64,000 nucleotides of DNA from NCBI RefSeq assembly GCF_055900595.2, contig NZ_CM148325.1. One strand, written 5' to 3'. A program made the position numbers and the translations under genes. The notes below the pieces were generated by a model, which made no database searches, was not told the origin of the DNA, and saw only the letters and a list, made by a program, of their open reading frames with translations. Positions 904 to 43,248 of this stretch are shown here, in pieces; the first letter of the stretch is position 1, and every line of letters starts with the position of its first letter.

Positions 904-1003
904 GCCTGATGCGCTACGCTTATCAGGCCTACATTTACCCTGCAATGCATTGATTTAGCACGATTTTGTAGGCCAGATAAGGCGCTCACGCCGCATCCGA
1001 CAT
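904..1003. repeat. REP (repetitive extragenic palindromic) element pair
   Basis: GCCTGATGCGCTACGCTTATCAGGCCTACA and inverted GTAGGCCAGATAAGGCGCTCACGCCGCATCCGACATG, typical E. coli REP units. Confidence 0.8.
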
Positions 1004-1031
1004 GAACAACGCGCACCTTATCAGCAATCTG

Positions 1032-1053
1032 AAGCCGCAGCCGCGGCTTTTTT
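1032..1053 (+). terminator. rho-independent terminator after artJ (overlaps rlmC stop)
   Basis: stem AAGCCGC/GCGGCTT followed by TTTTTT. Confidence 0.7.
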
Positions 1054-2767: not shown

Positions 2768-3613
2768 TCAGCCACGTCTTGCACGCTGGATGTCGCGTAT
2801 CCGCTGTTTTTCTGCGCGCGCCATCAGATACCAGGCGATAAATCCGACAATTCCGACCGCGCCGAGGATCAATGTTGCCAGGGCGTTGATTTCCGGATTT
2901 ACCCCCATCCGCACGCTGGAGAAGACCAGCATCGGTAACGTGGTGGCTCCTGGCCCGGAAACAAAGCTGGCAATCACCAGATCGTCGAGCGACAGAGTAA
3001 AAGCCAGTAACCAGCCAGAAATGATCGCGGGCATGATCATCGGTAGCGTAATGACGAAAAACACTTTCAGTGGCGTCGCACCAAGATCCATCGCTGCTTC
3101 TTCTATCGAGCTATCCAGTTCCCGCAGACGCGACGAAATAACGACTGCCACATAAGCCGTACAGAAAGTGACATGCGCCAGCCAGATGGTGAGCATGCCT
3201 CGCTCCGCAGGCCAGCCGATGGCATGTGCAAGTGCGACGAATAACAACAACAGCGACAAGCCTGTGATGACATCTGGCATTACCAGCGGCGCGGTGATCA
3301 TAAAGGCAAAACCATTTGATCCGCGAAACCTGCCAAAACGCACCAGCACTACCGCCGCAATCGTCCCGAGGATCGCCGCTGCCGTTGCCGCACAGGCTGC
3401 AATTGTCAGGCTTAAACCAACCGCGCTCATCATCGCGTCATCACGCAGTAATTCGCCATACCAGCGCGTTGACCAACCCGCCCATACCGTCACCAACTTC
3501 GAGCTGTTGAATGAATAGATCACCAGCATCAGCATTGGCGCGTAGAGAAAGGTGAAGCCCAGCAGCAAAATCACAATCCGCCAGGGCGAACGAACCACCG
3601 GTAAATTATTCAT
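2768..3613 (-). CDS. potI: putrescine ABC transporter permease PotI
   Basis: 281 aa from ATG at 3613 (MNNLPVV...); ATG overlaps potH stop (ATGA); ABC permease signature. Confidence 0.92.
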   Translation of the reverse strand: MNNLPVVRSPWRIVILLLGFTFLYAPMLMLVIYSFNSSKLVTVWAGWSTRWYGELLRDDAMMSAVGLSLTIAACAATAAAILGTIAAVVLVRFGRFRGSNGFAFMITAPLVMPDVITGLSLLLLFVALAHAIGWPAERGMLTIWLAHVTFCTAYVAVVISSRLRELDSSIEEAAMDLGATPLKVFFVITLPMIMPAIISGWLLAFTLSLDDLVIASFVSGPGATTLPMLVFSSVRMGVNPEINALATLILGAVGIVGFIAWYLMARAEKQRIRDIQRARRG

Positions 3614-4563
3614 CCGTGTTCTCCCACGCTTTTTTGCTGATGCTTGTGGAACCACATTATCGGCACAATTAGCAGCAGCAACATGATGATCGCTACCGCC
3701 GAGGCCACCGGCCAGTCGCGGTTATTGAAAAACTCCTGCCACAGCACGCGCCCGATCATGATGCTGTCCGGGCCACCGAGCAGTTCAGGGATCACAAACT
3801 CGCCCACAGCCGGGATAAACACCAGCATCGATCCGGCAATAATCCCGCCTTTGGTCAGCGGCACGATCACAGTAAAGAACGTTTTCAGCGGTCGTGCACC
3901 GAGATCCAGTGCCGCTTCCACCAGCGAATAATCAATACGAATCAACGCGGTATAAATCGGCAGCACCATAAACGGTACATAGGCATAAACAATGCCGATA
4001 TAAACAGCCAGGTTTGTATGCAGAATGGTCAGCGGCTGGTCGATAACTCCCAGCCACAGCAGAAAGTTATTCAGCACGCCGTTATTTTTTAATATTCCCA
4101 TCCAGGCATAGACGCGGATCAGAAACGAGGTCCACGACGGCAGGATCACCAGCAGCAATAAGATATTGCGGGTCGAAGGCTTACTGTGCGCCACCGCCCA
4201 CGCCAGCGGATAGCCGATCAGTAAACAACAAATTGTCGAAATCGCCGCTACCTGTAACGACTGGAGATATGCATCGAAATAGAGCGGATCGTCAGTCAGT
4301 TGCAGGAAATTACCAAGATTGAGGGTGATGGAAAGTTGCCCGTCAGCCCACTCCATCAGTTCGGTATAAGGTGGAATAGCGCGCGCCATCTCCGCCAGAC
4401 TTATTTTAAAGACGATCAGAAATGGCAGCAGAAACAGTAAGATCAACCAGATATACGGCAACGCAATGACCAGTTTGCGCCCATGCTTCATTTGCAGCTG
4501 CGACAACCACAGCTTAAATCCGCCCGGCGGTTTCGACTGGGCAGCAGGTTCAAGTGTACTCAT
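3610..4563 (-). CDS. potH: putrescine ABC transporter permease PotH
   Basis: 317 aa ORF, multi-TM ABC permease, operon position. Confidence 0.93.
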   Translation of the reverse strand: MSTLEPAAQSKPPGGFKLWLSQLQMKHGRKLVIALPYIWLILLFLLPFLIVFKISLAEMARAIPPYTELMEWADGQLSITLNLGNFLQLTDDPLYFDAYLQSLQVAAISTICCLLIGYPLAWAVAHSKPSTRNILLLLVILPSWTSFLIRVYAWMGILKNNGVLNNFLLWLGVIDQPLTILHTNLAVYIGIVYAYVPFMVLPIYTALIRIDYSLVEAALDLGARPLKTFFTVIVPLTKGGIIAGSMLVFIPAVGEFVIPELLGGPDSIMIGRVLWQEFFNNRDWPVASAVAIIMLLLLIVPIMWFHKHQQKSVGEHG

Positions 4564-12639: not shown

Positions 12640-12718
12640 GCCACTGCTTTTCTTTGATGTCCCCATTTTGTGGAGCCCATCAACCCCGCCATTTCGGTTC
12701 AAGGTTGGTGGGTTTTTT
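12640..12718 (+). ncRNA. rybB: RybB small RNA (sigmaE-dependent, Hfq-binding, OMP mRNA repressor)
   Basis: GCCACTGCTTTTCTTTGATGTCCCC... ending in hairpin CCCATCAACC/GGTTGGTGGG plus TTTTTT; matches remembered RybB sequence and its ybjL-rcdA intergenic location. Confidence 0.85.
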
Positions 12719-12737
12719 GTTATCTAAAATTTATCTA

Positions 12738-13357: not shown

Positions 13358-14566
13358 ATGACCGTAAATTCTTCACGTAATGCATTGAAACGCCGAACCT
13401 GGGCGCTGTTTATGTTCTTCTTTTTGCCGGGCCTGTTAATGGCGTCCTGGGCAACTCGTACACCTGCTATCCGCGATATTCTTTCTGTTTCGATCGCTGA
13501 AATGGGCGGAGTCCTCTTTGGTCTGTCGATCGGTTCAATGAGCGGTATTCTCTGCTCGGCGTGGTTAGTGAAACGCTTTGGGACGCGGAATGTCATCCAG
13601 GTCACGATGTCCTGCGCATTGATCGGGATGATGATATTAAGTCTGGCACTCTGGCTGACATCGCCCCTGCTCTTTGCCGTTGGTCTCGGCGTCTTTGGGG
13701 CAAGTTTTGGTTCTGCGGAAGTGGCGATAAACGTTGAAGGTGCTGCCGTTGAGCGAGAAATGAATAAGACGGTTTTGCCGATGATGCACGGTTTTTATAG
13801 CCTGGGCACGCTGGCAGGCGCTGGTGTCGGGATGGCACTGACGGCCTTTGGCGTTCCGGCAACGGTGCACATTTTATTGGCGGCGCTGGTAGGCATCGCG
13901 CCTATTTATATCGCCATTCAGGCAATCCCTGACGGTACGGGCAAAAATGCTGCCGATGGCACCCAGCATGGTGAAAAAGGCGTACCTTTTTATCGGGATA
14001 TCCAGTTGCTGCTGATTGGTGTTGTGGTACTGGCGATGGCCTTTGCCGAAGGTTCTGCCAACGACTGGTTACCCTTATTAATGGTTGACGGTCACGGTTT
14101 TAGCCCTACTTCCGGCTCGCTGATTTATGCCGGTTTTACCCTGGGGATGACTGTTGGACGCTTTACCGGCGGTTGGTTCATCGACCGTTATAGTCGCGTT
14201 GCCGTGGTTCGGGCCAGTGCACTGATGGGAGCGTTGGGTATTGGGCTGATTATTTTTGTCGATAGCGCCTGGGTCGCTGGGGTGTCTGTTGTACTTTGGG
14301 GACTGGGGGCCTCGCTGGGCTTCCCGCTGACCATTTCTGCCGCCAGCGATACCGGCCCCGATGCACCGACCCGCGTCAGCGTAGTGGCGACGACCGGTTA
14401 TCTGGCTTTCCTCGTCGGGCCGCCGCTGCTGGGCTATCTCGGCGAACATTATGGATTACGTAGTGCAATGCTGGTTGTACTGGCGCTGGTTATTCTTGCG
14501 GCTATTGTCGCGAAAGCCGTCGCCAAACCCAATACCAAAACGCAGACGGCGATGGAGAATAGTTGA
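13358..14566 (+). CDS. ybjJ: MFS transporter YbjJ
   Basis: 402 aa, 12-TM-like hydrophobic profile. Confidence 0.9.
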
Positions 14567-15381
14567 TGAGCATTAAATTAATTGCGGTTGACATGGATGG
14601 TACTTTCTTAAGCGATCAAAAAACCTATAACCGTGAGCGGTTTATGGCTCAGTATCAGCAGATGAAAGCACAAGGCATTCGCTTTGTGGTCGCCAGCGGG
14701 AATCAATATTATCAGTTAATCTCTTTCTTCCCTGAAATTGCTAATGAAATTGCCTTTGTGGCTGAAAACGGCGGTTGGGTTGTAAGCGAAGGCAAAGATG
14801 TTTTTAATGGCGAGCTGTCGAAGGATGCGTTTGCTACTGTGGTGGAACATTTACTGACGCGCCCAGAAGTGGAAATTATTGCCTGCGGAAAAAATAGCGC
14901 CTATACCCTCAAAAAATATGACGATGCCATGAAAACGGTGGCGGAAATGTATTATCACCGTCTGGAATACGTCGATAACTTTGATAATTTAGAAGATATC
15001 TTCTTTAAGTTTGGCCTGAATCTTTCCGATGAACTGATTCCACAAGTGCAAAAAGCATTACATGAGACCATCGGCGATATTATGGTGCCGGTCCACACCG
15101 GCAACGGCAGCATCGATCTGATTATCCCCGGCGTACATAAAGCGAATGGCCTGCGCCAACTTCAGAAATTATGGGGAATAGACGACAGCGAAGTGGTGGT
15201 CTTCGGCGATGGTGGTAACGATATTGAGATGCTGCGTCAGGCAGGCTTTAGTTTTGCGATGGAAAATGCTGGCAGCGCGGTCGTCGCAGCGGCAAAATAC
15301 CGGGCAGGCTCCAATAATCATGAAGGTGTACTGGATGTGATCGATAAAGTTCTTAAACACGAAGCGCCTTTTGATCAATAA
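14566..15381 (+). CDS. ybjI: HAD-family (Cof-type) phosphatase YbjI
   Basis: 271 aa from ATG at 14566, overlapping ybjJ TGA by 1 nt; DMDGTF HAD motif I; paralog of YbiV. Confidence 0.88.
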   Translation: MSIKLIAVDMDGTFLSDQKTYNRERFMAQYQQMKAQGIRFVVASGNQYYQLISFFPEIANEIAFVAENGGWVVSEGKDVFNGELSKDAFATVVEHLLTRPEVEIIACGKNSAYTLKKYDDAMKTVAEMYYHRLEYVDNFDNLEDIFFKFGLNLSDELIPQVQKALHETIGDIMVPVHTGNGSIDLIIPGVHKANGLRQLQKLWGIDDSEVVVFGDGGNDIEMLRQAGFSFAMENAGSAVVAAAKYRAGSNNHEGVLDVIDKVLKHEAPFDQ

Positions 15382-15466
15382 AAACGGTAGCACGCCCGGC
15401 AACACAAAGCCTGAATGAAGGCTGCATAATTCGCAGAAATTAACCCGCTGCATTATTTCAGGCGAA

Positions 15467-15751
15467 ATGATTATGAGAAATTGTCTACTGTTGGGCGCGC
15501 TTTTAATGGGCTTTACTGGTGTGGCGATGGCGCAAAGTGTCACCGTCGATGTGCCGAGTGGATACAAAGTGGTTGTGGTCCCTGATTCAGTCAGCGTTCC
15601 ACAAGCAGTCAGCGTCGCGACTGTGCCGCAAACCGTCTATGTGGCTCCTGCGCCAGCTCCGGCTTACCGCCCGCATCCGTATGTTCGCCATCTTGCCAGC
15701 GTAGGTGAAGGGATGGTTATCGAACACCAGATTGATGACCATCACCATTAA
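15467..15751 (+). CDS. ybjH: uncharacterised secreted protein YbjH
   Basis: 94 aa with signal peptide, V/P-rich repeats and C-terminal HHH. Confidence 0.8.
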   Translation: MIMRNCLLLGALLMGFTGVAMAQSVTVDVPSGYKVVVVPDSVSVPQAVSVATVPQTVYVAPAPAPAYRPHPYVRHLASVGEGMVIEHQIDDHHH

Positions 15752-15755
15752 TTTG

Positions 15756-15793
15756 AAAATGCCTGATTGCTTTGCGCAACCAGGCATTTTTTT
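15756..15793. terminator. bidirectional terminator between ybjH and mdfA
   Basis: stem AATGCCTG/CAGGCATT followed by TTTTTTT. Confidence 0.75.
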
Positions 15794-17024
15794 ACCCTTC
15801 GTGCGAATTACCCATCTGTTTATCTTTTAAAAAGATAACCATCAGCAGCAGCCACAAAATCCCGTTGGCAAGGTTGAAGAGATTAAACAGGCCATTTCCC
15901 CCATTCAGCCAGGCATGTTTGCTGATTTCAATACCGACGGTAAAAATAAGCATTTGCAACATTCCCATCGCCGCAGAAACCGTACCTTTACTCATATCGC
16001 TGGCAAACAGGGTCAATCGCACCAGTCCCGCATTCGCCAGGCCAATACCGAAAGCATAAATACTTAACCCGGCGGTCATCCACAAATACGCGTGCGATGA
16101 GATAACCGTTGCCGCAGCAGCGACCAACAGGCCAATCATAATCGGCCAGCCGCCCATAATAATCAATGAACGTACGGTGCGGCGCGAGGTCAGACGCGCT
16201 AGCAGCAAGTTACCCGCAATTAATGCCCCGAAAATAGGCACTTGCAGCAAGCCATATTCATAACTGCTCAACTGCTCGCCGGTAATGATGATAATCGGCG
16301 ACTGGGCGATCCACGCCAGCAACGGCAGGCTAACGAATCCCAGCGCCAGTGCCCCTGCCACAAAGCGACCGTTCTTCAGCACCAGCTTATAGTCACGACC
16401 GAGTTCTTTCAGCGACAGTTTCTCGCCTATACGCGTGGCGGTTTCAGGCATGGCTCGTTGCAGACCGAAAAAGGAGATCGCTGCCAATGAGGCAAACAAG
16501 ACGAACATCCCTTCCCAGGGCAGCACATGGATCCACGCCGCGCCCACCAGCGGACCAAGTAGCGGAGCAATCAGCGCCACGTTCGCCATCAGCGCGGTGA
16601 TCTTGATACAAACCGCCTCTTCGAAGGACTCCTGAATTGCGGCGTAACCCACAGCGCCAATGAAACAGAGGCTTATGCCCTGCAAGAAGCGCAACAGCGT
16701 GAATTGTTCAATGTTTTGCGCCAGTAATATCGCCAGACAAGTGATGATAAACCACACTACCCCCGCCAGCATCACCGGACGGCGACCAATACGATCCGAC
16801 AGTGGTCCCAGCAGCCACTGTAAAAACATCCCGCCCGCCAGATACGCGGTCATCGAAGTAGGAACCCAATCAATGCCCGCCTGATACTGCTCCACCACGG
16901 CCAACATGCCGGGTTGAATCATATCGTTGCCGATATAGGTTGAAAATTCGTAAAGCACCAGACAGAGAGGGAAAAGTAACGCCTGACGTCCAAGCCTGGC
17001 ACCGGAAGCTAATCTATTTTGCAT
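15792..17024 (-). CDS. mdfA: multidrug efflux MFS transporter MdfA (Cmr)
   Basis: 410 aa from ATG at 17024 ([20 protein letters not shown]...). Confidence 0.93.
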
Positions 17025-17309
17025 GCAATTTCTTCGCCAATAATAATCGCGCAAAGTTTAATAAAAGCGCAGCTAACGAGAAAGCGAATTTTGTAGCTGA
17101 AACTTCGGTTAAGCACATTCTTACATTATTGCGAGTATAGCTACGCTTTCTTTAAGTTTTATTTAACCTATGCTCGTTACAATCAGCCACCGTAAACAGG
17201 GCCGCTTGAGGGAAATAAGACGATGCCGCTTTACCCAGTTTAACCTGCACTTTATTCTCAACGACTTGCCTGTATTGGCTCCCTTTTAATCACTTTGCGT
17301 CGGGAAGTT

Positions 17310-17906
17310 ATGCTGGAAAATTTGAATCTCTCTCTATTCTCTCTTATTAACGCGACGCCAGACTCTGCGCCGTGGATGATCTCGTTGGCGATTTTTATTG
17401 CTAAAGATTTGATTACCGTGGTGCCGCTGCTGGCCGCAGTACTTTGGTTGTGGGGGCTTACAGCACAACGGCAACTGGTGATAAAAATCGCAATCGCGCT
17501 AGTCGTCAGCCTGTTAGTGTCCTGGACGATGGGGCATCTTTTCCCACACGACCGACCCTTTGTCGAGAATATCGGCTATAACTTCCTGCATCATGCGGCG
17601 GATGACTCATTCCCGAGCGATCATGGTACGGTAATTTTCACCTTTGCACTGGCATTTTTATGCTGGCATCGCCTGTGGTCCGGTTCCCTTTTAATGGTAC
17701 TGGCTGTTGTCATTGCCTGGTCGCGCGTTTATCTTGGCGTGCACTGGCCGCTGGATATGCTCGGTGGATTGCTGGCAGGTATGATTGGCTGCCTTAGCGC
17801 TCAGATTATCTGGCAAGCGATAGGGCATAAACTCTATCAACGTCTGCAATCATGGTATCGCTTCTGTTTTGCATTACCGATCCGCAAAGGCTGGGTGCGT
17901 GACTGA
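17310..17906 (+). CDS. ybjG: undecaprenyl-diphosphate phosphatase YbjG (PAP2 family)
   Basis: 198 aa from ATG at 17310; PAP2 motifs (PSDHG, SRVYLGVHWPLD). Confidence 0.9.
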   Translation: MLENLNLSLFSLINATPDSAPWMISLAIFIAKDLITVVPLLAAVLWLWGLTAQRQLVIKIAIALVVSLLVSWTMGHLFPHDRPFVENIGYNFLHHAADDSFPSDHGTVIFTFALAFLCWHRLWSGSLLMVLAVVIAWSRVYLGVHWPLDMLGGLLAGMIGCLSAQIIWQAIGHKLYQRLQSWYRFCFALPIRKGWVRD

Positions 17907-17963
17907 TCTCTGCTAAAAAGTGTAGTATTGAGCGGCTCGCTTCAATAACTATTCAGAGGGATT

Positions 17964-18722
17964 ATGGAAACACGTCGCGAAGAGCGTATCGGGCAACTGC
18001 TGCAAGAATTAAAACGCAGCGATAAGTTACATCTTAAAGACGCCGCCGCCCTGCTTGGGGTTTCGGAGATGACGATTCGTCGCGATCTGAACAACCACAG
18101 CGCCCCCGTCGTTTTGCTTGGCGGCTATATTGTTCTGGAACCGCGCAGCGCCAGCCATTATCTGTTAAGCGATCAAAAATCCCGTCTGGTAGAGGAAAAA
18201 CGCCGGGCGGCAAAACTGGCTGCGACGCTGGTAGAACCCGATCAGACCCTCTTTTTTGACTGTGGCACCACCACACCGTGGATTATTGAAGCGATTGATA
18301 ATGAAATCCCTTTTACCGCCATTTGTTATTCGCTAAATACCTTTCTGGCACTGAAAGAGAAACCTCATTGCCGCGCGTTTCTTTGCGGTGGTGAATTTCA
18401 CGCCAGCAACGCCATTTTCAAACCCATCGATTTTCAGCAAACGCTGAATAATTTTTGCCCGGATATCGCTTTTTATTCCGCGGCGGGGGTGCATGTCAGT
18501 AAGGGCGCTACCTGTTTTAATCTTGAAGAGTTGCCGGTAAAACACTGGGCCATGTCGATGGCGCAAAAGCATGTGCTGGTTGTCGACCACAGTAAATTTG
18601 GCAAGGTGCGTCCGGCACGCATGGGTGACCTGAAACGCTTTGATATTGTAGTGAGCGATTGTTGCCCGGAAGATGAGTATGTGAAGTACGCGCAGACGCA
18701 GCGTATTAAGTTGATGTATTAA
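17964..18722 (+). CDS. deoR: deoxyribose operon repressor DeoR
   Basis: 252 aa, N-terminal HTH, DeoR family. Confidence 0.93.
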   Translation: METRREERIGQLLQELKRSDKLHLKDAAALLGVSEMTIRRDLNNHSAPVVLLGGYIVLEPRSASHYLLSDQKSRLVEEKRRAAKLAATLVEPDQTLFFDCGTTTPWIIEAIDNEIPFTAICYSLNTFLALKEKPHCRAFLCGGEFHASNAIFKPIDFQQTLNNFCPDIAFYSAAGVHVSKGATCFNLEELPVKHWAMSMAQKHVLVVDHSKFGKVRPARMGDLKRFDIVVSDCCPEDEYVKYAQTQRIKLMY

Positions 18723-18729
18723 CAACGAA

Positions 18730-18760
18730 TAACCGGATGACGTTTCGCGCCATCCGGTTA
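18730..18760. terminator. hairpin between convergent deoR and dacC
   Basis: 10-bp stem TAACCGGATG/CATCCGGTTA; no strong T-run. Confidence 0.5.
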
Positions 18761-18768
18761 TCAGAAGA

Positions 18769-19971
18769 TTAAGAGAACCAGCTGCCGAACCACTGATGGA
18801 ATTTCATCATCACGAAATCCCACATCCGACCAAAGAATCCACCCTCTTCCACATTTTCCATCACGATCAGCGGGCGCTGTTCAATGGATTTACCGTTAAG
18901 CTGGAAATCAATGGTGCCGACAACCTGACCTTTTTTCAGCGGTGCGGTAAGCTGCGGTTCCGTTAACGTATAACTCGCTTTCAGGTTTTTCAGCTGCCCA
19001 CGCGGTATGGTCACGGATCCCGCTTCGCCTGCCCCGAGATTCACTTCGCTCTTATCACCAAACCAGACGCGCTGAGTCACAAAGGTGGCATCAGGTTTAA
19101 TTGGCGTCACGGTTTCAAAGAAGCGGAAACCCCAGGTCAATAATTTCTCAGACTCATTAAAACGGATACGGTCAGTTTTCGCCCCCAGCACTACGGAGAT
19201 TAAACGCATATCGCCCTGGGTAGCAGAAGCAACCAGATTATATCCCGCGCCTGCCGTGGTTCCTGTCTTCATGCCATCAACATTCAGATTGCTGCTCCAC
19301 AGCAGACGGTTACGGTTAGGCTGACGAATTTTGTTGAAGGTGAACTCTTTCTCTTTATGAATGGCGTACTCTTCTGGCACATCGTGAATCAGTGCTTTAC
19401 CCAGCAATGCCATATCGCGTGCGGTACTGAACTGCCCCGGCGCATCCAGACCGTGCACCGTCTGGAAGGTCGTGTTGGTCAGCCCCAGTTTTTTGGCATA
19501 ACCATTCATCAAACCAATAAATGACTCCTGGCTCCCGGCAACGTAATCAGCCAGCGCAATACAGGCGTCATTACCGGACTGGATAATCACGCCTTTGTTC
19601 AAGTCTGCCACCGAAACCTGATCGCCTGGTTTGAGGAACATTACCGACGAACCACGCAGTGCCGGGTTTCCCGTCGCCCAGGCATCTTTACCGACCGTCA
19701 CCATATCGGTGAGTTTAATCTTATCGGCCTTAAGCGCCTGCCCAACCACATAGCTGGTCATGATTTTAGTCAGGCTCGCGGGGTCCAGTTTCTCATCCGC
19801 ATTGCCTTCTGCCAGCACTTTACCGCTGGCGTAATCCATTAAAATCCATGCACGCGCATCCACGCTCGGCGCTTCAACGGTTTGTTCCGCCGCGAATGCC
19901 GTTGGGGCAAAAAGGAATAAAAATGCAGAACCCGCTGCAAGACCACGAAGGAGAGAGGAGTATTGCGTCAT
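18769..19971 (-). CDS. dacC: D-alanyl-D-alanine carboxypeptidase DacC (PBP6)
   Basis: 400 aa from ATG at 19971; signal peptide, SxxK (ASLTK) and KTG motifs. Confidence 0.93.
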
Positions 19972-20217
19972 AAATGCCACCCGAGTATCCATTCAAAAAA
20001 AATACGTTATATCGCCGTATGATAAGTTCGGTGATTAATAACGCACACACAAACTTAAAGAAACCGTAAGTTGGTAAAGTTTTTAAAGTTTATGCAATAT
20101 CCTGCCGCTTCGCTGCTTCTGCCGTCATTTTTTTGCCAGCTGTTGCTTAAAAGTTAACTTTACTTCACCATCAAAGTCCTGTTCAGCCTGTGGCTGCCTG
20201 TCGGAAAAGGGGTAAGT

Positions 20218-20844
20218 ATGATTACGCTGTGGGGTCGGAATAATTCAACCAACGTAAAAAAAGTATTGCTGACGCTCGAAGAACTGGAACTACCTTATGA
20301 GCAAATTCTCGCGGGCCGTGAGTTTGGGGTAAACCACGATGCTGATTTTCTGGCGATGAACCCTAACGGGCTGGTGCCGTTGTTGCGTGACGACGAAAGT
20401 GATCTCATTCTTTGGGAATCAAACGCCATTGTCCGCTATCTGGCGGCACAGTATGGGCAAAACCTCCTGTGGATCGACTCACCGGCACGCCGTGCAGAAG
20501 CGGAAAAATGGATGGACTGGGCAAACCAGACGCTCAGTAATGCCCACCGCGGGATCCTGATGGGATTAGTCAGAACACCACCGGAAGAGCGCGATCAGGC
20601 CGCCATTGATGCCAGTTGCAAAGAGTGTGACGCCCTGTTTGCCCTGCTCGATGCGGAACTGGCAAAAGTAAAATGGTTCTCTGGCGACGAGTTTGGTGTG
20701 GGCGATATCGCCATCGCACCGTTCATCTACAATTTATTTAACGTTGGCCTGACCTGGACACCGCGTCCAAATCTGCAACGCTGGTATCAGCAACTCACTG
20801 AACGCCCCGCAGTGCGCAAAGTGGTGATGATCCCCGTTAGCTAA
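20218..20844 (+). CDS. gstB: glutathione S-transferase GstB (YliJ)
   Basis: 208 aa GST fold. Confidence 0.9.
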
Positions 20845-21956
20845 TTGCGTGGGCTAACTTTAAGTAATTCCCCACTGGACTCGTCGGTGAGAACGTATAA
20901 ATAACCGTCGGGTCCAGTACGAACATCACGAATTCGCTGCCCTCTGTCCGTTAAAATACGGCCATCTTCTGTCACTTTGTCGCCGTTGACGCTCATCACA
21001 ATGACATCTTTATCTTTCAGCGCGCCAATAAATAATTTTTGCTGCCACTGGGGGAATTTATCGCTGTTATAGAAGGCCATGCCGCTCACGGCGGGCGAAT
21101 CTTTCCAGTAAAAAATAGGTTGCTCGGTCCCGGCGACGATCTCCCCTTTCGCTTCCGGTATTTTAAAGCCTGAATAATTGATTCCCCAGGTTGCCAGCGG
21201 CCAGACGTAGTTTTTGCCTTTTTGCGGGATATTAATTTCATCACCACCGCGTGGGCCATGTTCATTCAGCCACAGTGCATTACTCCACGGATTCATCGCC
21301 ATTCCTTGCGGGTTACGAATACCATAAGACCAGATCTCGGCGCGTGCATCGGATCTCCTGGCAAAAGGATTATCATCCGGGATCTCGCCCTGGTCAGTAA
21401 GACGCACCAGTTTGCCCTGTAATTTATCCAGATCCTGCGCCGTCGGGCGCTGATTGTTTTCGCCCAGAGCAATAAAAAGATAACCTTTACCGTCGAATAC
21501 CAGCCGCCCACCAAAATGGTTGCCGGTAGACAGTTTTGGCATCTGGCGAAAAATGGTGCGGAAGTCGGTCACTTTTGAAAGATCATCACTTAAACGACCA
21601 TACCCCACGGCAGTTCCGGCTTTGCCATCATCGCCAACTTCGGAATAGCTTAACCAGATGCGGCGCGACTGGGCAAAATCAGGTGCTAAAGCCACATCCA
21701 TTAAGCCGCCCTGCCCGTGCGCCCAAACTTCCGGCACTCCGGAAAGCGGCGCAGATAATCCTTTTCCTGCTTGCCAGCGACGCAACTCACCGCCGCGCAG
21801 GGTGATTAACATGCCGTGATTATCGGGTAAAAAGGCCAGCGCCCAGGGGTGATCGAGTTTGTCTTGCAGTACTTCGACATTTACCGTTGCAGGAGCTGCC
21901 CAGAGAGCAGAAGAAAGACAGATAAGGGGCACAAGGAAAAAGGATTGTCTCTGCAT
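20841..21956 (-). CDS. yliI: PQQ-dependent aldose sugar dehydrogenase YliI
   Basis: 371 aa with signal peptide; stop codon shares CTAA tetranucleotide with gstB stop. Confidence 0.9.
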
Positions 21957-22036
21957 AACGCCTCCAGATTGACTCTGGCTTAAAGCGTAGTCAGTGAAGG
22001 CGATAACAAATTCATTTTTACAAAAACTTAAATATG

Positions 22037-22061
22037 AAGGGGGAGACGCTTTCTCCCCCTT
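22037..22061 (-). terminator. hairpin immediately downstream of bssR
   Basis: stem AAGGGGGAGA/TCTCCCCCTT adjacent to bssR stop. Confidence 0.5.
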
Positions 22062-22066
22062 TGTTT

Positions 22067-22450
22067 TCAGGCCTTCTCAAGCATGGCATGTTTCTGCAGG
22101 CTCTGGATACTCAGCGTTAAGCTCATCAGACAATTTTCAAGCTTATCGGCGTTGACGGTAATAACAGTCGGGCAATCATGGTGCCCACTCATCAAACATA
22201 CTGCGGCTGTCGCTAATGCTTCTTCAGCATGATGAAGAGCACTCCACTCTTCCTGATCCAGATGAAGATTCAACCGCAGCGATTTATCGTGCAGTTCGCG
22301 ATTCAGTTTAAAAAAGTTATCTCGTAGATGATTGCTTTCGCTGACGGACATGTATCCTTTTGCCTTCCTCAGTTGCACGTATGCAGCGAGGTCAACGCGT
22401 GCGTCGATCAACCGGTTCAGCAGATCGATTCGCTGTCTGTCAACGAACAT
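22067..22450 (-). CDS. bssR: biofilm regulator BssR (YliH)
   Basis: 127 aa from ATG at 22450 (MFVDRQRIDLLNRLID...). Confidence 0.88.
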   Translation of the reverse strand: MFVDRQRIDLLNRLIDARVDLAAYVQLRKAKGYMSVSESNHLRDNFFKLNRELHDKSLRLNLHLDQEEWSALHHAEEALATAAVCLMSGHHDCPTVITVNADKLENCLMSLTLSIQSLQKHAMLEKA

Positions 22451-22662
22451 ACTTCGATCCTCCTCTTTCCAGCCTTGTTGCAATTAAATAGTATGGCTAT
22501 TTATTGAGCAAAATGCTGTCCAGGATCAATTCTTCACGCCGAATTAACAAAATTTACATTTCCTTCGCCTCCGCCAGCGAATGAGATTGCGATACAAATT
22601 TTATCCAGAACTCTGTAGAATCCCTGCCCTGACCTTTCCTGTAACTGAATATTTTTTAAGCT

Positions 22663-35569: not shown

Positions 35570-36318
35570 TGGCGGAACTCAGCGATCAGGAGATGCTGCG
35601 CTACAACCGGCAAATCATTCTGCGCGGTTTTGATTTTGACGGTCAGGAGGCGCTAAAAGATTCTCGTGTGCTGATCGTCGGCCTCGGTGGACTCGGCTGT
35701 GCAGCTTCGCAGTATCTGGCAAGCGCCGGTGTCGGCAACCTGACACTGCTCGACTTCGACACGGTTTCGCTCTCGAATCTGCAACGCCAGACTCTGCACA
35801 GTGATGCCACGGTCGGGCAACCGAAGGTGGAATCCGCCCGTGACGCCCTGACGCGGATCAACCCACATATTGCGATTACACCCGTCAATGCACTGCTAGA
35901 TGACGCAGAACTTGCAGCATTGATTGCTGAACACGATCTGGTGCTCGACTGTACGGATAACGTTGCGGTACGCAATCAACTGAACGCAGGCTGTTTTGCC
36001 GCAAAGGTGCCGCTGGTTTCCGGGGCGGCAATTCGTATGGAAGGGCAAATCACGGTCTTCACTTATCAGGACGGCGAGCCTTGCTACCGCTGCCTTAGCC
36101 GTTTGTTTGGCGAAAATGCGTTAACCTGCGTAGAAGCAGGCGTGATGGCACCGTTGATCGGGGTGATTGGTTCGTTGCAGGCAATGGAGGCGATCAAACT
36201 GCTGGCAGGTTATGGCAAACCTGCCAGCGGCAAAATCATCATGTACGATGCGATGACTTGCCAGTTTCGCGAAATGAAACTGATGCGTAATCCGGGGTGC
36301 GAGGTGTGCGGGCAGTAA
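35569..36318 (+). CDS. moeB: molybdopterin-synthase adenylyltransferase MoeB
   Basis: 249 aa; ThiF/MoeB Rossmann GLGGLG motif and C-terminal CxxC pairs; start overlaps moeA stop. Confidence 0.94.
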   Translation: MAELSDQEMLRYNRQIILRGFDFDGQEALKDSRVLIVGLGGLGCAASQYLASAGVGNLTLLDFDTVSLSNLQRQTLHSDATVGQPKVESARDALTRINPHIAITPVNALLDDAELAALIAEHDLVLDCTDNVAVRNQLNAGCFAAKVPLVSGAAIRMEGQITVFTYQDGEPCYRCLSRLFGENALTCVEAGVMAPLIGVIGSLQAMEAIKLLAGYGKPASGKIIMYDAMTCQFREMKLMRNPGCEVCGQ

Positions 36319-36331
36319 TTGCCAGCCCCAG

Positions 36332-36411
36332 GCCTGATAAGTCGCGGCAAGCGTCGCATCAGGCATTTGCTCCAGACGCCAGATGCGGCGTGAACGCCTT
36401 ATCTGGCCTAC
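36332..36411. repeat. REP element cluster
   Basis: GCCTGATAAGTCGCGGCAAGCGTCGCATCAGGC and GCCAGATGCGGCGTGAACGCCTTATCTGGCCTAC. Confidence 0.8.
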
Positions 36412-36496
36412 GGTTCGGGCGCAGATTTCCAGGCGCGGCAAGCGTTGGTGCACTCCACCATGTCATCAGCAATTGATGAGGATGCAGAACGTCCGG

Positions 36497-37159
36497 TTAA
36501 ATCGACGTTCTGCCAAAAGCCCCCTGCCAGTCCTGCTCAAACTTCGCCACGGCGGCATCAACTGCCGGATAGCTAATCATCTGCTGCGCCACATCCAGTG
36601 GCAGCGTGATTGATTCACATCCTGCCAGTAAGCAATCCAGCGCCTGACGCGGGGTTTTAAAACTCGCGGCTAACACTTTCGCCTGCGGCGCATGCATTTT
36701 CAATAACTGGTGTAAATCGGTCACAGTTTGAATACCGCTACCGCCCTGAGCATCAATTCGGTTGACGTAAGGTGCAACGTACTCCGCACCTGCCAGCGCC
36801 GACAGCAGCCCTTGTGCCGCGCCATACACTGCCGTACCCAGCGTCGGAATACCTTCTGCTTTTAACATTTTAATAGCAGCCAGCCCCTCGGCAGTCACCG
36901 GAACTTTCACCACGATATCTGCAATAATAGAACGCAGTTGACGTGCATCATTCACCATCCCTTCGGCAGTGGTAGCCATTACCTGGGCAAACAGACGCCC
37001 CTGACCGCCCATCGCTTCGTGAAGCTCCGGAAGTACCACCTCCAGCGGTTTTTTACCCGCGGCGATAATACTTGGGTTAGTGGTCACACCCGCCAGCGGA
37101 AAAATACGTGACAGTGTCTTCACCGCAACAACGTCTGAAGTATCCAGATACAGTTCCAT
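36497..37159 (-). CDS. fsaA: fructose-6-phosphate aldolase 1
   Basis: 220 aa from ATG at 37159 ([14 protein letters not shown]...), transaldolase-like. Confidence 0.92.
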
Positions 37160-37289
37160 AACCATCCTCAAAATGTACTTTTTGTCTGAATGTAGACTAT
37201 CACGGGAAAACTCTCTGAACAGTTGACGCACATCAATCTAACTTTCATTCGAAAGTATTTTAATGTTTGAACGAAACAGAGAGGCAACT

Positions 37290-38189
37290 ATGATTTTCAA
37301 TATTCAGCGCTACTCGACCCATGACGGCCCCGGTATCCGCACGGTCGTTTTTCTTAAAGGCTGTTCACTGGGCTGCCGCTGGTGTCAGAACCCGGAAAGC
37401 CGCGCCCGCACGCAGGATCTGCTGTATGACGCACGTCTGTGCCTGGAAGGCTGCGAGCTGTGCGCTAAGGCCGCGCCGGAAGCGATTGAGCGCGCGCTGA
37501 ATGGTTTGCTTATTCATCGGGAAAAGTTAACCCCGGAGCATCTGACGGCGTTAACCGACTGCTGCCCGACACAGGCGTTAACCGTGTGTGGTGAAGTGAA
37601 AAGCGTTGAGGAGATCATGGCGACCGTTCTGCGCGACAAACCGTTTTACGATCGCAGCGGCGGCGGCTTAACGCTTTCCGGTGGTGAGCCGTTTATGCAG
37701 CCGGAAATGGCGATGGGGCTACTGCAAACCAGCCACGAAGCCGGTATTCATACTGCGGTAGAAACCTGTCTGCATGTGCCGTGGAAATACATCGCCCCTT
37801 CTCTGCCGTATATCGATCTGTTTCTTGCCGATTTAAAACACGTTGCCGACGTGCCGTTTAAACAGTGGACCGACGGTAACGCCGCCAGAGTGCTGGATAA
37901 CCTGAAAAAACTCGCAGCGGCGGGGAAAAAAATCATCATCCGCGTGCCGTTGATACAGGGCTTTAATGCCGATGAAACCTCTGTGAAAGCCATTACCGAT
38001 TTTGCCGCCGACGAGCTGCACGTCGGCGAAATTCATTTCCTGCCCTACCACACGTTGGGCATCAACAAATATCACTTACTTAATCTGCCCTATGACGCCC
38101 CGGAAAAACCGCTTGATGCGCCAGAACTGCTCGACTTTGCCCTGCAGTATGCCTGCCAGAAAGGGTTAACCGCGACCTTACGAGGATAA
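37290..38189 (+). CDS. ybiY: glycyl-radical enzyme activating protein YbiY (PflE)
   Basis: 299 aa from ATG at 37290; radical SAM CxxxCxxC (CSLGCRWC) plus extra Cys-rich ferredoxin-like insert. Confidence 0.9.
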
Positions 38190-38194
38190 CAACC

Positions 38195-40627
38195 ATGACC
38201 ACACTGAAACTGGACACGCTCAGCGACCGCATTAAAGCGCACAAAAATGCGCTGGTGAATATTGTGAAACCGCCGGTCTGTACCGAGCGCGCGCAGCACT
38301 ATACCGAGATGTATCAACAACATCTCGATAAGCCGATCCCGGTACGTCGCGCGCTGGCGCTGGCCCATCACCTGGCGAATCGCACCATCTGGATCAAACA
38401 CGATGAGTTGATCATCGGCAACCAGGCCAGCGAAGTTCGCGCCGCGCCGATCTTCCCGGAATATACCGTCTCCTGGATCGAAAAAGAGATTGATGATCTG
38501 GCGGATCGTCCGGGTGCAGGTTTTGCGGTGAGCGAAGAGAACAAACGCGTTCTGCATGAAGTGTGCCCTTGGTGGCGCGGTCAGACGGTACAGGATCGCT
38601 GCTATGGCATGTTTACCGATGAGCAAAAAGGCCTGCTGGCGACCGGTATCATTAAAGCGGAAGGTAATATGACCTCCGGCGATGCGCACCTGGCGGTCAA
38701 TTTCCCACTGTTGCTGGAAAAAGGGCTTGATGGTCTGCGCGAGAAAGTGGCGGAGCGCCGCATGCGTATTAACCTGACCGTGCTGGAAGATCTGCACGGC
38801 GAGCAGTTCCTGAAAGCGATTGATATCGTGTTGGTGGCGGTCAGTGAACATATTGAACGTTTCGCTGCCCTGGCGCGTGAAATGGCCGCTACCGAACCCC
38901 GCGAAAGCCGTCGCGATGAACTGCTGGCGATGGCCGAAAACTGCGACCTTATCGCCCACCAGCCGCCGCAGACTTTCTGGCAGGCGCTGCAACTGTGCTA
39001 CTTCATCCAGTTGATTTTGCAGATCGAATCCAACGGACACTCGGTATCGTTTGGTCGTATGGACCAGTATCTCTACCCGTACTATCGCCGTGATGTTGAA
39101 CTGAACCAGACACTGGATCGTGAACACGCCATCGAGATGCTGCATAGCTGCTGGTTAAAATTGCTGGAAGTGAACAAGATCCGCTCCGGCTCACACTCAA
39201 AAGCCTCTGCGGGAAGTCCGCTGTATCAGAACGTCACCATTGGCGGGCAAAATCTGGTTGATGGTCAACCAATGGACGCGGTGAATCCACTCTCTTACGC
39301 GATCCTCGAATCCTGCGGTCGCCTGCGTTCGACGCAGCCTAACCTCAGCGTGCGCTACCACGCGGGAATGAGTAACGATTTCCTCGATGCCTGTGTGCAG
39401 GTGATCCGCTGCGGCTTCGGGATGCCGGCGTTCAACAACGACGAAATTGTCATCCCGGAATTTATTAAACTCGGTATTGAACCGCAGGACGCTTACGACT
39501 ACGCAGCGATTGGTTGTATCGAAACCGCCGTCGGTGGCAAATGGGGCTATCGCTGCACCGGGATGAGCTTTATCAACTTCGCCCGCGTGATGCTGGCGGC
39601 GCTGGAAGGCGGTCGTGATGCCACCAGCGGCAAAGTGTTCCTGCCACAAGAAAAAGCGTTGTCAGCGGGTAACTTCAACAACTTCGATGAAGTGATGGAC
39701 GCGTGGGACACGCAAATCCGTTACTACACCCGTAAATCAATCGAAATCGAATATGTCGTCGACACCATGCTGGAAGAGAACGTGCACGATATTCTCTGCT
39801 CGGCGCTGGTGGATGACTGCATTGAGCGAGCGAAAAGTATCAAGCAAGGCGGCGCGAAATATGACTGGGTATCGGGCCTGCAGGTCGGCATTGCTAACCT
39901 CGGCAACAGCCTGGCGGCAGTGAAGAAACTGGTGTTTGAACAGGGCGCGATTGGTCAGCAACAACTGGCTGCCGCACTGGCGGATGACTTCGACGGCCTG
40001 ACGCACGAGCAGCTGCGTCAGCGGCTGATTAACGGCGCGCCGAAGTACGGCAACGACGATGATACTGTCGATACGCTGCTGGCTCGCGCTTATCAGACCT
40101 ATATCGACGAACTGAAGCAGTACCATAATCCGCGCTACGGTCGTGGTCCGATTGGCGGCAACTATTACGCAGGTACGTCGTCTATCTCCGCTAACGTACC
40201 GTTTGGCGCGCAGACTATGGCAACGCCGGACGGGCGTAAAGCCCACACCCCGCTGGCAGAAGGCGCAAGCCCGGCTTCCGGTACTGATCATCTTGGCCCT
40301 ACTGCGGTCATTGGCTCGGTGGGTAAACTGCCTACGGCAGCGATTCTCGGCGGCGTGTTGCTCAACCAGAAACTGAATCCGGCAACGCTGGAGAACGAAT
40401 CTGACAAGCAGAAACTGATGATCCTGCTACGTACCTTCTTTGAGGTGCATAAAGGCTGGCATATTCAGTACAACATCGTTTCCCGCGAAACGCTGCTGGA
40501 AGCGAAAAAACATCCGGATCAGTACCGCGATCTGGTGGTGCGCGTAGCGGGTTATTCCGCCTTCTTCACTGCGCTCTCTCCAGACGCACAGGACGATATC
40601 ATCGCCCGTACTGAACATATGCTGTAA
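38195..40627 (+). CDS. ybiW: glycyl radical enzyme YbiW (PflF, pyruvate formate-lyase-like)
   Basis: 810 aa; C-terminal glycyl radical motif RVAGYSA; immediately downstream of its activase. Confidence 0.92.
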
Positions 40628-40772
40628 TCTCCTTCGCCCGGCGGCGTCGTCGCCGGGCCAAATCATTCACATCATCAATTCCGCTCTCACTTTCATTCGA
40701 AATATAATTTGTGCTCTGCGTCACATTGTTATTACACTGTTACGGTTTCATTTTCGAGCCAGGAGCACACCT

Positions 40773-41588
40773 ATGAGCGTAAAAGTTATCGTCACAGACA
40801 TGGACGGTACTTTTCTTAACGACGCCAAAACGTACAACCAACCACGTTTTATGGCGCAGTATCAGGAACTTAAAAAGCGCGGCATTGAGTTCGTTGTCGC
40901 CAGCGGTAATCAGTATTACCAGCTTATTTCGTTCTTTCCTGAGCTAAAGGATGAGATCTCTTTTGTCGCGGAAAACGGCGCACTGGTTTACGAACATGGC
41001 AAGCAACTGTTCCACGGCGAACTGACCCGACATGAATCAAGAGTTGTCATTGGTGAACTGCTGAAAGACAAGCAGCTCAATTTTGTTGCCTGCGGTTTGC
41101 AAAGCGCGTATGTCAGTGAGAATGCGCCAGAAGCATTCGTCGCGCTAATGGCAAAACACTACCATCGTCTGAAACCTGTGAAAGATTACCAGGATATTGA
41201 TGATGTACTGTTCAAGTTTTCGCTCAACCTGCCTGACGAACAAATCCCGTTAGTGATCGACAAACTGCATATTACGCTCGATGGCATTATGAAGCCGGTT
41301 ACCAGTGGTTTTGGCTTTATCGACCTGATTATTCCTGGCCTGCATAAAGCGAATGGTATTTCGCGGTTACTGAAACGCTGGGATCTGTCACCGCAAAATG
41401 TGGTAGCGATTGGCGACAGCGGTAACGATGCGGAGATGCTGAAAATGGCGCGTTATTCCTTTGCGATGGGCAATGCTGCGGAAAACATTAAACAAATCTC
41501 CCGTTACGCTACCGATGATAATAATCATGAAGGCGCGCTGAATGTGATTCAGGCGGTGCTGGATAACACCGCTCCTTTCAATAAGTAA
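40773..41588 (+). CDS. ybiV: HAD-family sugar phosphatase YbiV (SupH)
   Basis: 271 aa; DMDGTF motif; clear paralog of YbjI. Confidence 0.92.
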
Positions 41589-41739
41589 CCTTTTCCCGGC
41601 CGGAGCAATCGTTCCGGCATCTCTCTTTTTTGCTCACTTTGTGCACTTACTCAAGATTTTCATCTTGCGTTAACTTATTTTTAACTTAAAGTATCAATCA
41701 TAACTATTTTTACTTTCGAACGAAAGTTGTGAGGTTGAT

Positions 41740-42999
41740 ATGACTTTTACCTATGAGACACTGCCAACAGATGCGAAAACGGCTATCCGTAAGATGAAAG
41801 CGGAGCTGCGACAACAGATCGGCGATTTACAACAGGTCTTCGATAAACTCTCTGCAAAAATCGAAGCACGTGTAGCAGAAATAGACGCCCTCAAAGGGCA
41901 AGGATTACCGGTTTGGCCGGAAGTCCCATATAGCGACGTTGCAGCAGGTACAGTGAGTGAAGCCACGCGCAATGAAATTAAACGTCGCGGCTGTGCAGTA
42001 ATTAAAGGCCATTTCCCCCGCGAACAGGCACTGGCATGGGATCGCGCAATGCTTGACTATCTTGATGCCAATCATTTTGATGATGTTTATAAAGGTCCCG
42101 GCGACAGCTTCTTTGGATCGCTGGAGGCATCTCGTCCTGAAATCTACCCTATTTACTGGTCGCAGGCACAAATGCAGGCGCGACAAAGTGACAATATGGC
42201 GGCGGTGCAATCTTTCCTTAACCGCCTGTGGAAGTCTGAAAGCAACGGCAGGCAGTGGTTTGATCCCGATATTAGCGTGATCTATCCGGACAGGATCCGC
42301 CGCCGCCCACCAGGCACGACGTCTAAAGGTCTGGGTGCACACACTGATTCTGGGGCGCTGGAACGTTGGTTATTACCCGCTTATCAGCGTGTTTTTGCCC
42401 ATGTTTTCAACGGTAATGTCGACGATTACGATCCGTGGGATGCTGCATACCGTACTGATGTTGAAGAGTACACGGTGGATAACACCACAAAATGTTCGGT
42501 GTTCCGCACTTTTCAAGGCTGGACGGCGCTTTCCGATATGTTACCAGGACAGGGATTATTGCATGTGGTGCCAATCCCGGAAGCGATGGCGTATGTTTTA
42601 TTGCGCCCACTGCTGGATGACGTACCGGACGATGAGTTGTGTGGGGTCGCTCCTGGCAAAGTTCTGCCCATTTCAGAGAAATGGCATCCACTACTGATTA
42701 AAGCACTCACTTCCATTCCAGCTATTACAGCGGGGGATTCCGTCTGGTGGCACTGCGACGTGATCCACTCCGTCGCACCGGTAAATAATCAACAAGGCTG
42801 GGGGAATGTGATGTATATCCCTGCCGCGCCGATGTGTGAGAAAAACCGGGCTTATGCGCATAACGTTAGGAAAGCACTGGAAAAAGGGGCATCACCGGGC
42901 GATTTCCCTCGAGAAGATTATGAAGCAAACTGGGATGGCCGATTTACGCTGGATGATCTGAACAATCACGGTAAGCGCGCGCTGGGCATGGATGTTTGA
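41740..42999 (+). CDS. ybiU: DUF1479 family protein YbiU
   Basis: 419 aa ORF in the expected position; exact start not verified. Confidence 0.85.
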   Translation: MTFTYETLPTDAKTAIRKMKAELRQQIGDLQQVFDKLSAKIEARVAEIDALKGQGLPVWPEVPYSDVAAGTVSEATRNEIKRRGCAVIKGHFPREQALAWDRAMLDYLDANHFDDVYKGPGDSFFGSLEASRPEIYPIYWSQAQMQARQSDNMAAVQSFLNRLWKSESNGRQWFDPDISVIYPDRIRRRPPGTTSKGLGAHTDSGALERWLLPAYQRVFAHVFNGNVDDYDPWDAAYRTDVEEYTVDNTTKCSVFRTFQGWTALSDMLPGQGLLHVVPIPEAMAYVLLRPLLDDVPDDELCGVAPGKVLPISEKWHPLLIKALTSIPAITAGDSVWWHCDVIHSVAPVNNQQGWGNVMYIPAAPMCEKNRAYAHNVRKALEKGASPGDFPREDYEANWDGRFTLDDLNNHGKRALGMDV

Positions 43000-43089
43000 G
43001 AGGTGATGGATTAGTAGAAGTGAATTGATGTGAGGTTAAGAAAGCAGGTTCGGTGTTGCTCAGATTGCTGACAAAGTGCGCTTTGTTCA

Positions 43090-43187
43090 TGCCGGATGCG
43101 GCGTGACTGTCTTATCCGACCTACAAAATCATGCAAATTCAATATATTGCGATACACTGTCAGGCCTGATAAGCGTAGCGCATCAGG
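43090..43187. repeat. REP element cluster
   Basis: GCCGGATGCGGCGTGACTGTCTTATCCGACCTAC and TCAGGCCTGATAAGCGTAGCGCATCAGGC. Confidence 0.8.
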
Positions 43188-43248
43188 CAATTTTGCATTT
43201 GTCATCAGTTTCAGTAGCCCTGACCCTATCAGGGCTACTGATAATAAC

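Follow-up and report, generated by a model that had tools for sequence, protein, structure and literature searches.

The window, a stretch of 64,000 nucleotides, carries two genes, ybjI and ybiV, that very probably encode Mg-dependent phosphatases of the Cof type (HAD-IIB), both from one distinct subfamily and diverged from each other long ago. Both are core Escherichia coli genes that were annotated and biochemically characterised long ago, and earlier publications already treat them as paralogues within the Cof-like HAD family; nothing about the pair is novel, and little is at stake in its description. The sole added value is a caution concerning the N-terminal signature shared by the two proteins, which is a subfamily hallmark common to Firmicutes and by itself is no proof of intrachromosomal duplication.

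Identity of ybjI and ybiV

A sequence-only reading had described the pair as two intact Cof-type HAD phosphatase paralogues lying 26 kb apart, and both genes are indeed found at its coordinates, on the plus strand (Table 1). The distance from start to start is 26,207 bp. RefSeq places the ybjI start at the ATG at 14566, while the list of open reading frames reaches further, to a TTG at 14563. YbjI shares 98.9% amino acid identity and equal length with K-12 YbjI (b0844), from which it differs by three changes, T168A, P175S and H252R (95.8% nucleotide identity); it is the same gene, embedded in the shared rcdA-ybjJ-ybjI-ybjH-mdfA neighbourhood. Similarly, YbiV is the same gene as K-12 YbiV/SupH (b0822; PDB 1RLM, 1RLO, 1RLT and 2HF2), with equal length, 97.1% amino acid identity and a shared fsa-ybiY-ybiW-ybiV-ybiU neighbourhood. 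Its eight amino acid changes are accompanied by 93.0% nucleotide identity, below the roughly 97% to K-12 that is typical of the window, whose source is a divergent lineage of E. coli. The gene names ybjI and ybiV are right: identical DNA bears them in RefSeq, and both K-12 orthology and synteny concur. Among 5426 complete genomes, ybjI is present in 5422 and ybiV in 5425. A third Cof-like gene is not found in the 64-kb window.

Table 1. Features of the ybjI and ybiV loci, with positions counted from the first letter of the window
Feature	Position	Strand	Description and basis
ybjJ	13358..14566	+	MFS transporter gene just 5' of ybjI
ybjI	14566..15381	+	Cof-type HAD-IIB phosphatase, 271 aa; ORF and 100% identical RefSeq DNA annotated ybjI
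fsa	36497..37159	-	Fructose-6-phosphate aldolase, in the conserved ybiV neighbourhood; annotation and synteny
ybiY	37290..38189	+	Glycyl-radical enzyme activase, upstream of ybiW-ybiV; annotation and synteny
ybiW	38195..40627	+	Glycyl radical enzyme, encoded 145 bp 5' of ybiV
ybiV (supH)	40773..41588	+	Cof-type HAD-IIB sugar phosphatase, 271 aa; ORF and 100% identical RefSeq DNA annotated ybiV
Terminator-like GC-rich hairpin with T-rich tail	41599..41618	+	11 bp past the ybiV stop; consensus scan
ybiU (DUF1479)	41740..42999	+	Downstream neighbour of ybiV; rare divergent allele

Family assignment and catalytic motifs

Profile searches place both proteins in the Cof-type family over the full length of the models. 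TIGR00099, with a curated cut-off of 137 bits, scores 193.9 bits for YbjI and 218.9 bits for YbiV across profile positions 1-256 of 256, and PF08282 scores 187 and 181 bits, respectively, across positions 1-255 of 255. The HAD motifs, defined as DxDx(T/V) for motif I, S/T for motif II, K for motif III and (G)DxxxD or GDxxND for motif IV, occupy identical positions in the two proteins: D9-M-D11-G-T13, S44, K192 and G214-D215-x-x-N218-D219. The catalytic core of each protein, comprising the nucleophile Asp9 in DxDGT, Ser44, Lys192 and GDxxND, is intact, and the four motifs are invariant across all 82 subfamily sequences. Approximately 145 residues separate S44 from K192, in keeping with a C2B cap domain inserted between motifs II and III.

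In a PDB search, YbiV matches its own structures (1RLM/2HF2) with E = 2e-177. The best solved relative of YbjI is YbiV (297 bits), with residues 1-270 aligned to 1RLM at E = 7e-88, whereas YidA reaches only 55 bits. Within the genome, YbjI and YbiV are each other's closest relative, sharing 52% identity against 21-23% to the compared paralogues Cof, YbhA and YidA, and neighbour-joining (NJ) analysis splits the subfamily from these three in 200/200 bootstraps. Cof, YbhA and YidA display the same PF08282/TIGR00099 architecture and the same HAD motifs but differ in their reported substrates. HMP-PP, PLP and sugar phosphates are the reported substrates of the other E. coli Cof-type paralogues. YigL and YedP are further E. 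coli members of the HAD-IIB Cof type, the identity comparison covering Cof, YbhA and YidA. Beyond E. coli, Bacillus subtilis YcsE and YwtE are HAD-IIB ArPP/FMN phosphatases whose reported reaction is the same as that of YbjI (PMC8475336). The 'YcsE-related' model NF045966 is the second-best NCBIfam match for YbjI and YbiV, but its scores of 98 and 106 bits lie far under the cut-off of 220, so neither protein belongs to that equivalog.

Pairwise comparison of YbjI and YbiV

The pairwise protein alignment that the sequence-only reading had proposed as a check is gapless from end to end, with 141/271 identities (52%), 68% positives and E = 9e-104. The identity is unevenly distributed, amounting to 73% over residues 1-60, 39% over residues 61-135, 53% over residues 136-190 and 48% over residues 191-271. 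Residues ~81-180, between motifs II and III, are taken from HAD-IIB architecture to be roughly the cap domain, with approximate boundaries; they share 38% identity, compared with 52% over residues 181-271. The N-terminal strings quoted in the earlier reading are all present, yet its description of near-identical N-terminal halves is overstated, as identity falls from 73% over residues 1-60 to 39% over residues 61-135.

At the nucleotide level, synonymous sites are saturated (pS 0.77, with pN 0.33) and third-position identity is 39% overall, with no gene-conversion tract, which supports the view of the pair as ancient. The longest exact match between the genes is 14 nt, and blastn pairs 14590-14773 with 40797-40980 as its best segment, at 72% identity. 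In tblastx and blastn comparisons covering ±6 kb round each gene, the matching sequence stops precisely where the two ORFs do, and neither flank homology nor a duplicated neighbour gene is found. A segmental duplication is ruled out by these searches, the homology being confined to the two ORFs. The GC content of ybjI and ybiV is 45-47% and their GC3 47-52%, against 51% GC for the window, values that hold no usable signal on so old an event.

Two readings of this similarity can be set aside. The first, which the sequence-only reading had itself named as its refutation, is a motif-level resemblance common to all HAD enzymes; motifs I-IV are indeed among the conserved columns, but the full-length alignment, set against 21-23% identity to Cof, YbhA and YidA, rules this out. 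Recent duplication or ongoing gene conversion, acting chiefly on the N-terminal part, could seem to follow from the 73% identity of the first 60 residues and from the 72% blastn segment. It is nevertheless extremely improbable: apart from the saturated synonymous sites and the short longest match, third-position identity at identical residues is 0.54 in the N-terminus and 0.46-0.67 elsewhere, so that the N-terminus holds no excess, and the two genes keep their positions throughout the family. The conservation of the N-terminal signature in Firmicutes points to purifying selection rather than gene conversion, and together with the saturated synonymous sites it rules out this reading.

Firmicute homologues and the origin of the pair

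The signature of YbjI and YbiV also occurs in homologues of Bacillus, Listeria, Trichococcus, Enterococcus and Breznakia. Firmicute members such as Streptococcus mutans SMU.1108c (PDB 3L7Y) and the proteins of Bacillus glycinifermentans, Listeria newyorkensis, Trichococcus and Enterococcus share the signature together with all catalytic motifs, at 45-52% identity to YbjI and YbiV and 171-178 bits to 3L7Y, although they belong to a different phylum and their gene neighbourhoods are unlike those of ybjI and ybiV. The signature therefore marks the subfamily and not a lineage-specific duplication, and the step from N-terminal pattern to intrachromosomal duplication fails. Such a duplication is itself plausible, given the linkage of the two genes.

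The rcdA-ybjJ-ybjI-mdfA and fsa-ybiY-ybiW-ybiV-ybiU neighbourhoods are conserved across Enterobacteriaceae, and synteny around each of the two genes is kept in, among others, Escherichia, Salmonella, Citrobacter, Enterobacter, Klebsiella/Raoultella, Kluyvera and Pluralibacter. In 12 genomes a single contig carries both ybjI and ybiV, in the same orientation and 20-64 kb from each other. Because linkage and shared orientation hold throughout Enterobacteriaceae, local duplication is the most likely origin, and it is on this linkage that a duplication is judged probable, with room for doubt. The event would have been a single-gene local duplication before the Enterobacteriaceae radiation, followed by divergence in specificity.

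The main competing account, that the genes are xenologues, is a good deal less likely. It holds that an ancestor of Enterobacteriaceae already possessing one of the genes acquired the other horizontally, a Firmicute-like donor being one example, and that the newcomer landed, or was later moved, within ~26 kb. The sequence comparisons lend it some weight, since YbjI is as close to its Firmicute homologues (50% mean identity) as to YbiV (49%), with YbiV at 45% to Firmicutes. This comparison draws on Firmicutes picked by the pattern KLIAVDMD, a choice that biases the sample towards YbjI-like sequences, within a subfamily sample of 80 sequences kept from at least 514 candidates of a genome scan. 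In an NJ tree of 85 sequences, YbjI and YbiV are exclusive sisters in only 0-3/200 bootstraps, and group four-point (quartet) results shift with the partition used (all, core or cap columns) and with two distance corrections. The deep branching order of that tree is, however, without support and its outgroups are saturated at 21-23% identity; the tree lacks resolution rather than contradicts duplication. Acquisition also accords with the absence of duplicated flanks and with the unrelated neighbourhoods in which homologues outside Enterobacteriaceae sit, as seen in Yersiniaceae, Erwiniaceae, Mangrovibacter and Shimwellia. One source attributes most bacterial protein family expansion to transfer (PMC3463476). 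Against acquisition stands the arrangement of the genes: these closest Cof paralogues are co-oriented and 20-64 kb apart in every Enterobacteriaceae genome with both on one contig, and by our estimate the chance of an independent insertion within ~26-64 kb of a 5-Mb chromosome is roughly 1-3%. The similar GC content of the genes gives no signal. Should transfer and subsequent fixation as a core gene be true, these textbook E. coli HAD 'paralogues' would be xenologues.

Gene neighbourhoods and proposed functions

The TGA stop of ybjJ and the ATG of ybjI overlap by one base (TGATG; sequence GAATAGTTGATGAGC), and this overlap indicates that ybjJ-ybjI is likely a translationally coupled operon, in which YbjI would be co-translated with the MFS protein YbjJ. 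The adjacency of the two genes is kept in 32/32 YbjI-clade loci. On the ybiV side, ybiW adjoins ybiV in 25 of the 27 YbiV-clade loci. In two Superficieibacter genomes ybiV is retained and ybiY, ybiW and fsa are all missing, showing that any functional tie of YbiV to these genes is not obligatory.

Kuznetsova 2006, Haase 2013 and Roberts 2005 are the primary papers on the phosphatase activities of the K-12 enzymes YbjI and YbiV. YbjI dephosphorylates ArPP and FMN (PMC7017516; PMC8475336), and YbiV has been employed as a sugar phosphatase (PMC10576766; PMC12801476). Targets bound and regulated by YciT include ybiV, ybiY and fsaA (PMC8464067), and YbiW is reported to be the enzyme that cleaves 1,5-anhydroglucitol-6-phosphate in 1,5-anhydroglucitol catabolism, according to a summary of the work of Ma et al. 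(PMC12441222). Read with HAD-IIB architecture, this literature suggests that the diverged caps may give YbjI and YbiV different substrate preferences. Specifically, action on ArPP and FMN, an activity known from the K-12 enzyme, would assign YbjI a role in riboflavin biosynthesis and flavin turnover, while YbiV would act on sugar phosphates and may be tied both to the YciT regulon and to fsaA-ybiY-ybiW, the anaerobic cluster for 1,5-anhydroglucitol.

A promoter scan returns no sigma-70-like site upstream of ybiV, a result that is uninformative, and the consensus scan that places the terminator-like hairpin yields 2 sites where 1.4 are expected. Downstream of the hairpin, the ybiU allele of the window occurs in 16 of 5426 genomes and encodes a protein with 81% identity to K-12 YbiU. 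The ybiV-ybiU segment may carry an old, maintained polymorphism.

YbjI and YbiV are intact Cof-type phosphatases

The window carries ybjI and ybiV as complete ORFs exactly where the sequence-only reading had placed them, and these are the same genes as K-12 b0844 and b0822, with protein identities of 98.9% and 97.1%, respectively. A longest-ORF listing offers TTG at 14563 as an alternative ybjI start. Both proteins match PF08282 over their full length and exceed the curated TIGR00099 (Cof-type HAD-IIB) cut-off of 137 bits, YbjI at 194 bits and YbiV at 219 bits. All four HAD motifs (D9-x-D11-G-T13, S44, K192 and G214-D215-x-x-N218-D219) are retained in each protein, and both genes are therefore intact, as proposed; the motifs are invariant across 82/82 subfamily members collected. 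YbiV/SupH itself has been solved (1RLM, 1RLO, 1RLT and 2HF2; E 2e-177), and these structures are also the best solved relatives of YbjI (297 bits, versus only 55 bits for YidA).

Megablast recovers ybjI in 5,422/5,426 and ybiV in 5,425/5,426 complete E. coli genomes, including 100% identical copies of each in some strains, annotated accordingly (for example, "ybiV: sugar-phosphatase YbiV"). Five ybjI and five ybiV matches in the E. coli set fall on plasmid-labelled records, and a few genomes hold 2–3 copies; these cases may stem from plasmid-borne large chromosomal segments or from problems of assembly or labelling. Paralogy among E. coli Cof-like phosphatases is already on record (PMC3040653), and the pair is itself known, with nothing new about it here.

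Coordinates of features in the window and in compared loci
Feature	Position	Strand	Details
REP/BIME-type repeat	884-1032	+	contains GCCTGATGCGCTACGCTTATCAGGCCTAC; Rfam ES036 match at 925-967
RybB sRNA	12643-12721	+	Rfam RF00110, 104 bits; in the ybjL–rcdA interval, the same place as in K-12
ybjI	14566-15381	+	271 aa; RefSeq start ATG 14566
REP/BIME-type repeat	36331-36408	-	contains GCCTGATGCGCTACGCTTATCAGGCCTAC; between moeB and fsa; Rfam naRNA4 match, 74 bits
ybiV	40773-41588	+	271 aa
ybiU (DUF1479)	41740-42999	+	rare, deeply divergent allele
REP/BIME-type repeat	43060-43209	-	contains GCCTGATGCGCTACGCTTATCAGGCCTAC
IS200/IS605 tnpA insertion	NZ_CM128605.1 (L001) 36103-36561 = window ~45994		between ldtB and ybiR; absent from the window
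MFS gene, Yersinia nurmii (L065)	~2956-4000		directly upstream of 'YersB' homologue
MFS gene, Rouxiella aceris (L072)	~2940-4000		directly upstream of 'YersB' homologue

Sequence divergence and substrate preference

YbjI and YbiV align without gaps from end to end, with 141/271 identities (52%), 68% positives and E 9e-104 (BLASTP), a full-length similarity that rules out likeness at the motif level only. Identity is 73% over residues 1–60, 39% over 61–135, 53% over 136–190 and 48% over 191–271, with the cap region (about 81–180) at 38% and residues 181–271 at 52%. The earlier description of near-identical N-terminal halves thus holds for roughly the first 70 residues and fails beyond them. A tblastn search with YbjI across the whole window found no third YbjI-like gene.

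At the nucleotide level the genes share 57% identity, falling to 39% at third positions; pS is saturated at 0.77 (pN 0.33) and no exact in-register match exceeds 14 nt, bearing out an ancient split. Gene conversion is rejected as the source of the N-terminal likeness because third-position identity at identical residues shows no N-terminal excess (0.54, versus 0.46–0.67 elsewhere), and the conservation, as read from these codons, is attributable to purifying selection on the protein.

In HAD-IIB enzymes, a Rossmann-like core performs Mg-dependent phosphoryl transfer via the motif-I aspartate, and substrate choice is the task of a cap that sits as an insertion between motifs II and III. A most conserved N-terminal core combined with a diverged cap fits two enzymes that would share the same chemistry and have different substrate preferences. 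The literature is consistent with such differing preferences: YbjI acts with YigB in removing phosphate from ArPP and FMN, single deletion mutants showing no riboflavin auxotrophy (PMC7017516, PMC8475336); an engineered strain made less riboflavin when ybjI was overexpressed (PMC11731478); and YbiV is in use as a broad sugar phosphatase, acting for example on psicose-6-P and mannose-6-P (PMC10576766, PMC12801476).

Gene neighbourhoods and origin of the pair

The stop codon of ybjJ, which encodes an MFS transporter, overlaps the ybjI start (TGATG), and this adjacency is conserved in 32/32 YbjI-clade loci, which together suggest that the two genes would be co-translated. The MFS genes upstream of two Yersiniaceae 'YersB' homologues of YbjI/YbiV are 25–27% identical to ybjJ; they echo the ybjJ–ybjI pair, so that the MFS–phosphatase pairing may be older than Enterobacteriaceae. 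The ybiV gene lies 145 bp downstream of ybiY-ybiW, adjoins fsa and is followed by a terminator-like hairpin 3' of its stop codon; two Superficieibacter genomes carry it but have no ybiY, ybiW or fsa. Among the genes bound and regulated by YciT are ybiV, ybiY and fsaA (PMC8464067). Ma et al., as summarised in PMC12441222, reported YbiW to be the glycyl-radical enzyme through which 1,5-anhydroglucitol is broken down anaerobically, and we infer that YbiV might act as a phosphatase on intermediates of this pathway.

The homologue sample comprises 80 loci kept out of at least 514 candidates when 100,044 species genomes were scanned, seeded with FMAQYQ[QE] and K[LV]I[AV][VT]DMD and hence biased toward YbjI-like sequences. 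Across Enterobacteriaceae, including Escherichia, Salmonella, Citrobacter, Enterobacter, Lelliottia, Klebsiella/Raoultella, Kluyvera, Pluralibacter, Pseudocitrobacter, Superficieibacter and Kosakonia, ybjI occupies the neighbourhood rcdA-ybjJ-ybjI-mdfA-ybjG-deoR and ybiV the neighbourhood fsa-ybiY-ybiW-ybiV-ybiU, and the two are co-oriented and 20–64 kb apart in the 12 genomes having both on one contig. These separate neighbourhoods and their conserved linkage place the two-gene state before the radiation of the family. In K-12 (NC_000913.3), ybhA (797.6 kb), ybiV (859.2 kb) and ybjI (885.3 kb) put three Cof-type HAD-IIB genes within about 90 kb; ybhA is only about 21–23% identical to the other two.

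The N-terminal pattern from which an intrachromosomal duplication had been deduced does not carry that conclusion, being present also in Bacillus, Listeria, Trichococcus, Enterococcus, Breznakia and Neobacillus homologues. Mean identity between the YbjI and YbiV clades (49%) resembles that of YbjI (50%) and YbiV (45%) to Firmicute homologues. In NJ bootstraps, the subfamily separates from Cof, YbhA and YidA in 200/200, the YbiV clade is recovered in 200/200 and the YbjI clade in 184/200, and YbjI and YbiV are exclusive sisters in only 0–3/200; group-level four-point tests change outcome with column partition and distance correction. Homology ends exactly at the ORF borders, and comparison of the flanks of the two loci found no duplicated neighbouring gene.

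We nevertheless somewhat favour a local duplication that predates the radiation of Enterobacteriaceae. A xenologous origin of the pair appears less likely: it accords with transfer being in general the main route by which bacterial families expand (PMC3463476), but independent insertion would leave the two closest Cof paralogues of the genome in conserved linkage with a chance that we estimate at roughly 1–3%.

The window among E. coli genomes

Over 10001–46289 the window and NZ_CM128605.1 run collinear at about 99.96% identity, save the IS200/IS605 insertion in the latter; the window is likewise collinear with the K-12 grxA–ybiR region, to which overall identity is about 96–97% (syntenic 42 kb) with local dips. 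The ybjI, ybiV and ybiU loci are 100% identical in a small genome set (Mali strains, a dog isolate and others); such matches in few genomes, with the K-12 identity, assign the window to a divergent E. coli lineage.

The deepest dip against K-12 falls at ybiU (41.7–43.7 kb; 88% identity or no match), where protein identity is only 81%. By megablast, the allele is present at DNA identities of at least 99% in 16/5,426 and of 80–90% in 231/5,426 complete E. coli genomes, and is undetected in the remainder. The adjoining ybiV shows 93% nucleotide identity to K-12, versus ~97% for the rest of the window, and the ybiU/ybiV divergence may represent an old polymorphism, either recombined or maintained. 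The E. albertii locus (L041) lacks ybiU at this position.

Among the REP/BIME-type repeats, the first and last are about 85% identical in inverted orientation, and the moeB–fsa copy constitutes a ~100-bp insertion relative to K-12.
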